From contig CBDDCX010000006.1 of NCBI GenBank assembly GCA_965226375.1, forward strand, positions 352,001 to 416,000: a stretch of 64,000 bases of DNA. The letters are read 5' to 3'. Made by a program: the position numbers and the translations under genes. Each line of letters opens with the position of its first letter. Within the stretch, counting starts at the first letter, position 1. This DNA is from Longimicrobiales bacterium. GTDB lineage: Bacteria; Gemmatimonadota; Gemmatimonadetes; Longimicrobiales; Gaopeijiaceae. Shown here in pieces: positions 56,880-59,477 of the stretch. The notes beneath the pieces were generated by a model. It did not search any database. It saw only the letters and a list, made by a program, of their open reading frames with translations, and was not told where the DNA came from.

Positions 56880-57659
56880 CTACAGATTCCAAGAGATGTT
56901 CCCGTCCTTCCTCGTGGTCACGACCTTGCGCATTTCTCGGCCCGAAGGCGTCGAGAACGACTCGCCGGAAGCGTGCTGAGCGTAGGTGCTGGCCATAAGC
57001 TGGGTGTCGTGCTGAATCGGTCCGTCAGACATCACGACCGATCGAGGCTTGCAGTAGCTGAAGACTTCCGGGCAATAGCCGCTCTCTCGACCATGGTGCG
57101 ATACGACGAACACGTCCACACGCTTGAGGAGTCCTTGCACGTGTGGGTTCTCAAGCAGGGTGAGCCAGCCGGCGCGCTCAAGGTCGCCTCCGAGAACGAA
57201 CGAGACGCCACCGACATCGAGGAAAGTGAGCAAACTCAGGTTGTTTGTGTCAGTGAACGTCGGGTAATCGTTGTGAAAGAACCAGACCCGCAGGCCAGCT
57301 GGCTCCAGCTGCTCTGCGGTCACACACCCGGTGAACGAGTCGATCATGCCGAGCAACTCGGTCATCGCTGGGCTGATAGGCTGTGTCTTCAGCGAGCGAA
57401 TCTGAGCGCTTGTCATACTGCTGTTCCGCGTCAGGACTTTGATATCGAGGTTCTGGCGAACGGCAAGCAGATCGCTGATGTGGTCTTCGTCGTAGTTCGT
57501 GACGAAGAACCGGCGAATGCTCGTGATGCTACGGGCGGGAAGGCACGTCGACGGGCGGTTCGCCGAGCTGTGTCCGCAGTCGAAGAGGAGGACTCCCCCA
57601 TTGCTGCCTACGGCGTAGGCGCAGAACCCGTGGTCGACGTTCAGGATTTCCAATCTCAC
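56880..57659 (-). CDS. ComEC-like MBL-fold hydrolase (variant motif NYDEDH)
   Basis: LNVDHG, LFDCG, TNYDEDH, NNLS, GGDL, SHHG. The GTG start overlaps the upstream TGA. Confidence 0.88.
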   Translation of the reverse strand: MRLEILNVDHGFCAYAVGSNGGVLLFDCGHSSANRPSTCLPARSITSIRRFFVTNYDEDHISDLLAVRQNLDIKVLTRNSSMTSAQIRSLKTQPISPAMTELLGMIDSFTGCVTAEQLEPAGLRVWFFHNDYPTFTDTNNLSLLTFLDVGGVSFVLGGDLERAGWLTLLENPHVQGLLKRVDVFVVSHHGRESGYCPEVFSYCKPRSVVMSDGPIQHDTQLMASTYAQHASGESFSTPSGREMRKVVTTRKDGNISWNL

Positions 57660-58669
57660 GGGATAAGGCCCTCCGTAATGGGTCCGACGTGCCAAGCCTT
57701 GAGCGCGTCGCTGTGCCAAGTGCCTGGGTTGACCCTTTTGGCGAAGTTTTCGTGTGTCACGTAGAGCGTCATCGGGTTGGTGTTCGCATCGACGACCATG
57801 CAGTTGGCTTGGTTGTTAGTGACGATAGACAGCCCACGATTGTGCCATGCGTCGTAGGCCAGGTGCTCGGAACGAGCGTTGCCGAAGAACGTCAACGTCG
57901 GTGTCAGCGTGTCAAGGAACTTGTACGAGCGACCGGACTTCCGGCCATGATGCGGCGCGATGAGCAAGTCGATGTCTGTGACGTCGACCTTATGGTGATC
58001 GAGGATGTGATCCCAGGTCTCGTCGTGCGAGTCGCCACCAAATACGATGCGGTTGTCGCCGGTGCGATAGAGAATCACGTACGAGCACCGATTGTAATTC
58101 TGGCCGGCTTTGTTCGCTGCGGCGACGAGTTCCGGTGTCGGGGCGAGGATTCTAATCCCATCCCCACCCCCTTTACCCTCCCAGTTCTCCGTGCGGTAGG
58201 GGCCGCGGTTCCCTGAATACAGGGTCAGGCGCTTGGGCTTGGTCTGTGGATTGGTGTCTCGAAGCCACTTGTAGAACTTCCAGTCCGACTCTCGATACGA
58301 AGATCCTTCCCACTCTGAGCTCGGCATCTCCTTTGTGTTGTCGGTGTCATAGAAGTTGGTCGGGCTGAATTCATCGAAGAGGGCATCGATGCCGTCCATG
58401 TGATCCATGTCCGGGTGCGTCTGAACGTACCGGAAGATGTTGTTTATGCCGTGGTCCCGCATGTAGCTAATGGGGTTCACCGGGTACTCCTTCTGCTGGA
58501 AGTTTCCGGTGATGCCACGCTCTGCCTCGGACATCTTCGCCATCAACGCTTCCTGCAGCGGTTCGACAGGCTTGGCGTTGCAGACATCGATGACGGTTTT
58601 GTGCCCGGAGTAGTGCTCTATAATGGAGCAGTCCCCCTGGTTCACGTTCAGGAAGTGAATCGTGGGCAT
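57656..58669 (-). CDS. ComEC-like MBL-fold metallo-hydrolase
   Basis: FLNVNQGDC, THPDMDHMDG, N..S, GGDS, APHHG. Confidence 0.9.
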   Translation of the reverse strand: MPTIHFLNVNQGDCSIIEHYSGHKTVIDVCNAKPVEPLQEALMAKMSEAERGITGNFQQKEYPVNPISYMRDHGINNIFRYVQTHPDMDHMDGIDALFDEFSPTNFYDTDNTKEMPSSEWEGSSYRESDWKFYKWLRDTNPQTKPKRLTLYSGNRGPYRTENWEGKGGGDGIRILAPTPELVAAANKAGQNYNRCSYVILYRTGDNRIVFGGDSHDETWDHILDHHKVDVTDIDLLIAPHHGRKSGRSYKFLDTLTPTLTFFGNARSEHLAYDAWHNRGLSIVTNNQANCMVVDANTNPMTLYVTHENFAKRVNPGTWHSDALKAWHVGPITEGLIP

Positions 58670-58672
58670 TGC

Positions 58673-59383
58673 CTACTCCTGGTCCAAGGCGGCCTCGAGG
58701 ATAAAGCGCGCATATCGGTTGGCGGCGAGTTTCACTGTGCGCTCTGTGACCCACGTCATCCACGCGAGTAAGAGCCCCGCAGTGATGATCCCAGCGACGA
58801 TGGAGACCGCAGGAGGTGTAGCGGCCGACCAACTGGTGTAGGTGGACCAGCCAGTGCCAGCAAGACTCGCGAGCGCAATGAGGACGCCGAAGGTTTTCAG
58901 GCCGAGGAGATTCCTGCGGAAGCCGTACTCGACGAGTCCCTTGAAGACGAGAGGGTACTTCTTCTGGTCCCTAGTCCTTCTGATGAGTTCCTCGGTGCAC
59001 GATTCGTAGTGTTTGTCGGCAGCGCGCGCATCTTGCTCTTGCTCCTCGCGCGTCGGGACCAGTAGGCCGAGGGAATGCAGCTTGTCGTGCACACGACCAC
59101 GCGTCACCTCGTTGAACTCACGGTTCCCGTGGCGGAGAAACCGTGTTGTCGGTGGCCCGCCCCAGTCGCGCCAGAGGCGTTTCTCGAGATGCTTTCCGAA
59201 GTCCGCTCCAACCTGGCTCAGTAAGAACGAGATAGGCACGAAGACGAGAGCTGCCGCTCCTCCGAGCGGAAACTTGAGGCCGTCGGGAACAAGCGCGGCA
59301 AGCAGTAGGACTGCGGGGCTAATCGATAGATAGACAGGGAGGGTCCGTGCCCGAAAACTGTAAGCATCGAGATTTATAACCAC
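58673..59383 (-). CDS. Hypothetical membrane protein (2+2 TM), first gene of the MBL operon
   Basis: Two hydrophobic hairpins flanking a soluble segment (WGGPPTT..., YGFRRNL); AT-rich upstream region. Confidence 0.85.
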   Translation of the reverse strand: MVINLDAYSFRARTLPVYLSISPAVLLLAALVPDGLKFPLGGAAALVFVPISFLLSQVGADFGKHLEKRLWRDWGGPPTTRFLRHGNREFNEVTRGRVHDKLHSLGLLVPTREEQEQDARAADKHYESCTEELIRRTRDQKKYPLVFKGLVEYGFRRNLLGLKTFGVLIALASLAGTGWSTYTSWSAATPPAVSIVAGIITAGLLLAWMTWVTERTVKLAANRYARFILEAALDQE

Positions 59384-59477
59384 GTGATTAACCTACGAGT
59401 GTGCTTAGCGAAAATAGTGAGCGGCATGAGCTGTGAGTTCATGTTCTTAACACAATGAATAACAATCACGAGCTAGG

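Follow-up and report, generated by a model that had tools for sequence, protein, structure and literature searches.

What is the function of a short operon of one membrane protein and two hydrolases in the genome of a Longimicrobiales bacterium, and does it represent a new kind of defense against phages? The operon lies in a stretch of 64,000 nucleotides (positions 352,001 to 416,000 of contig CBDDCX010000006.1, assembly GCA_965226375.1), which we call the window; coordinates are those of the window unless another locus is named. It encodes a protein with four transmembrane helices (hereafter TM) and two hydrolases of the ComEC-like metallo-beta-lactamase (MBL) type, MBL1 and MBL2. A preliminary description of the window presented these genes as a candidate undescribed defense system. 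We came to a different view of its novelty. The cassette is probably anti-phage, but we do not regard it as entirely new: it appears to be a ubiquitin-free variant within a recognized group of membrane-plus-hydrolase defense operons.

Layout of the cassette

The cassette consists of three intact open reading frames (ORFs), co-oriented on the minus strand, and is single-copy in the genome. Its features are as follows.

59383-58673, minus strand: TM, four-helix membrane protein of 236 amino acids (aa), GTG start
58669-57656, minus strand: MBL1, hydrolase of 337 aa with a ComEC-like metallo-beta-lactamase fold
57659-56880, minus strand: MBL2, hydrolase of 259 aa counted from the GTG that overlaps the MBL1 stop
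59384-59468, minus strand: AT-rich leader, presumed promoter region

The preliminary description was accurate on this layout, including the 3-nt gap between TM and MBL1 (58670-58672) and the GTGA overlap of MBL1 and MBL2 (57656-57659). GGAG precedes each start, and the GTGA overlap is kept in 12 of 12 homologous loci inspected. The remarks on composition hold as well. The leader is AT-rich (41% GC over 59384-59500), and the GC content of the module, 58.5% against 63.5 ± 1.8% for the genome, is within the lowest 0.8% of 1685 windows. No sigma-70-like promoter passed a consensus sigma-70 scan of the leader.

The region is covered by contigs from two other public runs, one of which spans the junction of TM and MBL1 (58563-59002, with one difference). 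Thus the cassette is not an assembly artefact. Two metatranscriptome assemblies contain a few short, low-depth pieces of the region and are uninformative on its transcription.

Conservation and distribution of the three genes

We sampled 17 genome loci with close TM homologues and 50 metagenome loci, most of them short. The order TM-MBL1-MBL2 was found in 10 of the 17 genome loci (eight intact and two frameshifted; L011 and L017 belong to the same genome) and in four of the 50 metagenome loci. The arrangement on which the preliminary description had staked its proposal is thus conserved elsewhere, with a total of 14 three-gene loci from several phyla. The record titles of the genome loci that bear the trio or TM name Gammaproteobacteria, Acidobacteriota, Eisenbacteria, Gemmatimonadales, Latescibacterota, and Cyanobacteria.

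Among the other genome loci, two have TM and MBL1 only, one ends at a contig edge, and four contain TM fragments; TM-only fragments stand at the decayed loci L014-L016 and L018. The metagenome set adds two loci with TM and MBL1 and two with TM and MBL2. Since TM can be accompanied by MBL1 alone (L003, L013, L127, L131) or by MBL2 alone (L122, L132), the two MBLs seem to be exchangeable. Gene order is variable across the TM family.

All three genes are under purifying selection. The pairwise ratios of nonsynonymous to synonymous substitution rates (dN/dS) are about 0.06-0.15 for each of them (24 of the 27 pairs were computable and three were saturated). The distribution is patchy: the TM family occurs in seven of 301 genomes of the phylum, including the source genome, and cassette DNA in none of 40 related genomes.

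Defense genes near the cassette

We scanned 129 flanking ORFs from 20 loci with Pfam. Restriction-modification (R-M) or other defense genes lie within about 4.5 kb in nine of the 14 three-gene loci. Five of the trios stand directly after hsdS of a type I R-M operon: in L004, L006, and L008 the trio is directly between hsdS and hsdR, in L010 it is two genes before hsdR, and in L012 hsdR is out of range. In three further trio loci the nearby genes include methylase, Mrr, hsdR, or SIR2, and in L126 a 6A-type MBL and Cap2-3 precede the trio. Proximity to known defense genes, which the preliminary description proposed to measure, is seen in these nine loci as a raw count.

As the preliminary description also said, no cyclase or nucleotidyltransferase is encoded in the operon. 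Nor was a cyclase or CD-NTase of the kind used by CBASS and Pycsar identified as a recurring neighbor, either among the neighbor clusters, which were assessed by inspection, or in the 20 loci scanned with Pfam; this search covered the operon and its neighbors only. In L008 and L012 the Pol-beta domains are part of HsdS ORFs.

The two MBL hydrolases

The metal site of MBL1 is canonical (H85-x-D87-x-D89-H90, N193, D213, H240-H241, as judged by conservation in our alignment A4). Its AlphaFold2 (AF2) model is confident (pLDDT 88), and Foldseek matches this model best to ComEC (beta-lactamase-like domain, 9ic4, E 8e-14), followed by the phosphorylcholine esterase Pce (2bib, E 1e-12). MBL1 shares with both the fold and the HxDxDH-type metal site. 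MBL2 differs from them in carrying Asn at the position of the first metal-binding His (T-N-Y-D-E-D-H), although D159, H188-H189, and the other ligands are retained. Among the close homologues listed, all 18 distinct sequences carry this Asn. Subclass B2 beta-lactamases remain active with a similar His-to-Asn change, so MBL2 need not be catalytically dead.

The cassette differs from ComEC and Pce in that its MBLs are stand-alone and cytoplasmic, at about 18% identity, and its membrane protein is separate and looks unrelated. Both MBLs begin directly at the first beta-strand and have no signal peptide. A search of 50,697 phage records with MBL1 gave no match.

The preliminary description called the MBLs paired and ComEC-like. 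They are indeed adjacent and of the ComEC-like type, but they are not a close pair: their identity is merely 30% over 56 aa, and in a 34-row tree of hand-picked MBLs they fall into separate clades, both outside the clade of 6A enzymes. We therefore rejected a recent tandem duplication as their origin.

Both MBLs match PADLOC models of PDC-M48B, MBL1 the model PDLC04673 (1.2e-33) and MBL2 the model PDLC04674 (7.9e-52), whereas TM matches no PADLOC model; a PADLOC run had been proposed as a check in the preliminary description. The candidates of the PDC set were chosen by context such as embedding in R-M, BREX, or DISARM operons, according to the accessible part of the source (Payne et al., 10.1101/2024.01.29.577857). 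Five of the 14 trio loci are inside type I R-M operons as well, but the copy in the window is not. PDC-M48 also differs in having a single MBL, where the cassette has two from different clades. As for PDC-M48A, its models detect neither the 236-aa TM nor any of 136 members of the TM family; the three models that we checked against the genome have 125-166 positions and find nothing there.

The four-helix protein and its relation to Csx27

The hydrophobic segments of TM are at about residues 14-32, 38-62, 158-177, and 187-213. They form a 2+2 topology, with a pair of helices on either side of a soluble loop that is about 95 residues long. The AF2 model is helical (pLDDT 78) and agrees with these segments, which supports the four-helix assignment made earlier. 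The most conserved residues of the family are located in the soluble loop (motifs WGGPPTT, RTRD, and YGFRRN).

At E<=0.001, a search of 50%-identity clusters returned 2227 relatives of TM. It has no match in Pfam, PADLOC, or NCBIfam; 136 relatives gave isolated weak matches only against profile libraries, and an Atlas search returned unnamed clusters only. The family is present on one viral contig. Long fusions of TM were searched over 656-2000 aa only and none was found, which is weak evidence; a protein of 406 aa (P0190) fuses an MBL tail to TM and may be a read-through artefact. One locus (L001) of the single-protein locus scan was discarded as a spurious match. The hydrolase-plus-TM system of Rousset and co-authors was rejected as a counterpart because its hydrolase is of the HAD type.

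A link to a named family came from another four-helix protein, which stands beside plasmid homologues of MBL2 and matched the PADLOC models of Csx27 and PDC-M48A. In an alignment of its family (A6, 47 rows), 24 of the 47 rows match Csx27 and six match PDC-M48A weakly. The full-length match between A6 and the profile of the TM family (A2) has a probability of 96% and an E-value of 2.7e-9. In a rerun this comparison scored 46.6, against a maximum of 30.4 in 40 segment shuffles that keep the hydrophobic pattern and 23.2 for the reversed profile. Against a single Csx27 sequence, A6 was marginal by hhalign (24.3, with a shuffled maximum of 22.7) and had an HMMER E-value of 1.5e-5. On these profile comparisons, TM is probably a remote homologue of the Csx27-like and PDC-M48A-like four-helix proteins, through a two-step link only.

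Like TM, the Csx27 family has four transmembrane helices in a 2+2 arrangement. According to the accessible parts of the sources, its genes lie in operons together with those for transformation components, the ubiquitin system, and WYL proteins, a link to competence and ubiquitin-like genes that was reported in 2019, and its members are predicted to form channels for single-stranded DNA (ssDNA) (PMC7642515, PMC11662929, PMC8209922). The TM family has the same operon ties, to ComEC-like, ubiquitin-like, and WYL genes (the last in L028, L144, and L175). The difference is that no Cas13b-like gene was recognized among the flanking ORFs scanned.

A similar set of parts with a different TM subfamily occurs on a plasmid of the archaeon Haloplanus (L181:2844-6016). 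There an MBL1-like gene (THPDMDH) is divergent from an MBL2-like gene, and a Csx27-like four-helix protein is encoded downstream.

The TM family in 6A-MBL operons

Operon type 6a, as described in the accessible part of Iyer, Burroughs and Aravind 2006 (PMC1779556), has an E2-E1-JAB gene beside an MBL. A review lists 6A-MBL among the Pseudomonas aeruginosa systems with confirmed anti-phage activity, in the part of it available to us (PMC13276650).

To describe the wider surroundings of TM we used distant loci picked on a TM sequence motif alone, namely the best 80 of 127 loci, or 79 after one duplicate was dropped; the threshold for Cap2-3 was loose. An MBL is present in 74 of these best 79 loci, within 300 bp of TM in 60. 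A Cap2-3-like match was found in 31 and an MBL without Cap2-3 in 46. Of the 56 loci with flanks of >=3 kb on each side, 32 combine an MBL with the absence of Cap2-3, and only one of the 56 has two MBLs and no Cap2-3. From plasmids we retrieved 10 of 86 matches. In five of these 10 regions (L019, L023, L024, L025, L028) both 6A models, NF058524 and NF058523, pass their cut-offs beside TM; the other five lack Cap2-3, and their MBL matches PDC-M48B. Since an MBL accompanies TM with or without Cap2-3 across these loci, the unit that stays constant is TM plus MBL, to which a ubiquitin-like gene may or may not be added. Loci with two MBLs make up a minority lineage.

The cassette shares several features with 6A-MBL. 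The same TM family occurs in all five plasmid regions where both 6A models pass, although TM is not known as a formal component of the system. The MBLs have the same ComEC-like fold, and genes of the MBL1 or MBL2 type occur as extras in the 6A operons L023, L051, L054, L088, and L126. There are differences as well. No E2-E1-JAB gene was found in the source genome, which is 90% complete: the best NF058523 match there is a 48-bit E1-like match elsewhere (the cut-off is 320), and tblastn with two Cap2-3 queries gave nothing at E<=1e-5. Against the 6A enzyme model NF058524, MBL1 scores 35 bits (the cut-off is 220) and MBL2 has no match. A C-terminal Gly, the presumed site of conjugation, is present in 21 of 32 enzymes of the 6A type, in none of 27 of the MBL1 type, and in one of 20 of the MBL2 type. 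The lack of an E2-E1-JAB gene and of a C-terminal Gly in the MBLs means that the cassette is not 6A-MBL itself. It resembles the TM plus MBL part of 6A-MBL or PDC-M48 yet fails formal membership of both.

The claim that the module matches no named system therefore has to be withdrawn in its original form, given the PDC-M48B matches of both MBLs, the regular presence of the TM family in 6A-MBL operons, and its probable remote relation to Csx27.

Several single loci deserve mention. In L126 (775-8507) a 6A-type MBL, Cap2-3, and a patatin-like gene are followed by TM-MBL1-MBL2 with 73-81% identity to the genes of the window (73% for TM); this locus is possibly an intermediate between the ubiquitin-containing and ubiquitin-free forms. 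L061, L084, L148, and L055 have the arrangements MBL-TM-MBL or MBL-MBL-TM with different MBL clades, which suggests that a second MBL was gained repeatedly. A helix-turn-helix (HTH) regulator stands near 6A-MBL-type operons in six loci (L019, L050, L079, L090, L097, L126), often together with an ImmA/IrrE-like peptidase (five loci), and a WYL gene does so in the three loci named above; the copy in the window has no HTH or WYL regulator.

Mobile surroundings of the cassette

The following features flank the cassette and are outside the module.

56144-56465, minus strand: tyrosine-integrase fragments downstream, which share 71-81% identity with the integrase at 49968 when compared by tblastn and blastn with the integrases of this genome
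55470-56146: rve or insertion sequence (IS) fragment
59469-59711, no strand assigned: repeated element of ~243 bp upstream, IS-remnant-like, repeated at two further sites of the genome with 97-98% identity
49968-51188, plus strand: full-length tyrosine integrase of 406 aa (Arm-DNA-bind_3, Phage_int_M, Phage_integrase)
59882-62644, minus strand: large LRR/Big_2/M66-peptidase-like protein, a eukaryote-like surface protein unrelated to the cassette
62727-63914, plus strand: FN3 protein of the eukaryote-like surface type, unrelated to the cassette

The preliminary description placed the cassette among decayed integrases and IS remnants. The fragments at 56144-56465 and 55470-56146 agree with this, but the integrase at 49968-51188 is full-length and not decayed. 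It has five full-length paralogues in the genome (74-94% identity), and this family may be a marker for a set of cargo islands. The ~243-bp element, perhaps an IS256-like remnant, has very high depth in public DNA runs. No tRNA gene was found in the window.

Elsewhere in the same genome (G000:C6:16655-22646) there is a type I R-M operon whose hsdM and hsdR are 77% identical to those of L004. Here hsdR directly follows hsdS, i.e., this is an "empty" version of the slot that the cassette fills in L004, L006, and L008. The operon adjoins integrases of the same family as that at 49968.

Proposed function and its alternatives

We are fairly confident that the cassette is, overall, a defense module directed against phages. 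The trio is co-conserved, under selection, patchily distributed, and often located in R-M loci, and TM is nearly always accompanied by a ComEC-like MBL. The particular mechanism that we prefer, to which we give even chances, is that of a membrane-tethered nuclease with MBL1 as the main catalyst and MBL2 as an exchangeable modifier, in a ubiquitin-free branch of the TM plus MBL module. The operon is horizontally mobile and would act against phages or other mobile elements. The four-helix protein would sit in the inner membrane, where its conserved soluble loop may recruit or control the cytoplasmic MBLs, so that together they would resemble a ComEC whose membrane and nuclease portions are separate proteins. 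MBL1 has a full two-metal site and could be the main phosphodiesterase, cutting foreign nucleic acid as it enters or after it is newly made, or that of the host to abort infection. MBL2, with its His-to-Asn site, could be an exchangeable second subunit of altered or weak activity, serving as a sensor, a regulator, or an extender of specificity.

Several observations weigh against the membrane-tethered nuclease. Five of the 14 trio loci have no defense neighbors (two of them are 5-kb contigs), and neither has the source window. The proximity to defense genes in the other nine has no formal background rate beside it; for scale, the source genome of 4.2 Mb has two hsdR matches. The TM profile scores 14.0 against one Csx27 sequence, which is within the range of shuffles, and gives no direct signal to the Csx27 model. 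No solved relative of TM was found by sequence, Foldseek, or VIA, where the highest Z was 6.6 and the matches were of a generic helical kind. The fold of MBL1 matches Pce nearly as well as ComEC, and for this reason nucleic acid is a presumed substrate. Finally, in the accessible part of Rousset and co-authors (PMC9122126), membrane partners in defense operons are generally regarded as effectors that kill the cell.

The last point favors the main alternative, an abortive-infection pore, in which TM would be the effector that kills the cell and the MBLs, acting upstream as sensors, would release it in response to a phage product or by way of a small nucleotide ligand that they make or destroy. 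The conserved residues in the soluble loop could form a site for such a ligand, and the origin of MBL partners in several distant clades is easier to reconcile with a common small product than with a common binding surface. Against this, no cyclase or signaling nucleotidyltransferase was identified as a recurring neighbor, and TM has no fold match to a known pore. Moreover, Csx27, the probable remote relative of TM, is reported in the available part of the source to repress Cas13b rather than to enhance it (PMC8209922). We regard the pore as possible but on balance unlikely. The idea of the preliminary description that nucleotide signals gate the membrane effector, which belongs here, found no positive evidence, given the lack of a cyclase family among the recurring neighbors noted above.

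Two explanations without a primary defense role seem improbable to us. The cassette could be a toxin-antitoxin-like addiction module, with a harmful component and a neutralizer that stabilize the island. The tight translational coupling, the mobile context, and the TM-only fragments at decayed loci would fit such a module; the ability of either MBL alone to accompany TM and the variable gene order across the family would not, and the repeated placement inside R-M operons fits defense better. It is just as doubtful that the genes serve the uptake or scavenging of DNA, with TM as an ssDNA channel and the MBLs as DNA-processing enzymes, or that they process envelope phosphoesters as Pce does. The fold of MBL1 is closest to those of ComEC and Pce, and the ssDNA channel predicted for Csx27 in secondary sources, seen in part, would suit uptake. 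However, the patchy, mobile, and R-M-embedded distribution speaks against these readings, as does the lack of a signal peptide in both MBLs, and no recurring pilus or competence genes were recognized in the neighbor clusters.

A bolder form of the nuclease reading is that the TM plus MBL pair is the true effector core of 6A-MBL-type immunity, in which the ubiquitin-like machinery is optional. The trio would then be a self-sufficient, split-ComEC-like form whose Csx27-like TM holds both MBLs at the inner membrane, where they destroy entering phage DNA. We consider it a long shot, with perhaps one chance in four. If true, it would provide the first assayable function for an unannotated four-helix family of over 2000 clusters and a handle on Csx27.

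In the literature searched, whose coverage did not extend to the primary papers on 6A-MBL and Csx27 or the supplementary definition of PDC-M48, we found no description of the three-gene form and no naming of PDC-M48. Nothing specific to the cassette came from 10.1101/2025.09.30.679545, 10.1101/2022.03.31.486616, or PMC13187072. Because operons of this kind are already recognized, the gain lies in mechanism and annotation and not in a new class. The cassette offers a naturally occurring, minimal form of a module that is widespread and combines ComEC-like MBLs with a four-helix protein missed by Pfam, PADLOC, and NCBIfam. A hidden Markov model for TM would let defense annotators detect many loci that are now missed. 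Since the cassette has no E2-E1-JAB gene, it permits a direct test of whether TM plus MBL alone protects. Such a test would show what the ubiquitin-like step adds to 6A-MBL, and it might help to explain the Csx27 family, whose role at the membrane is still a prediction.

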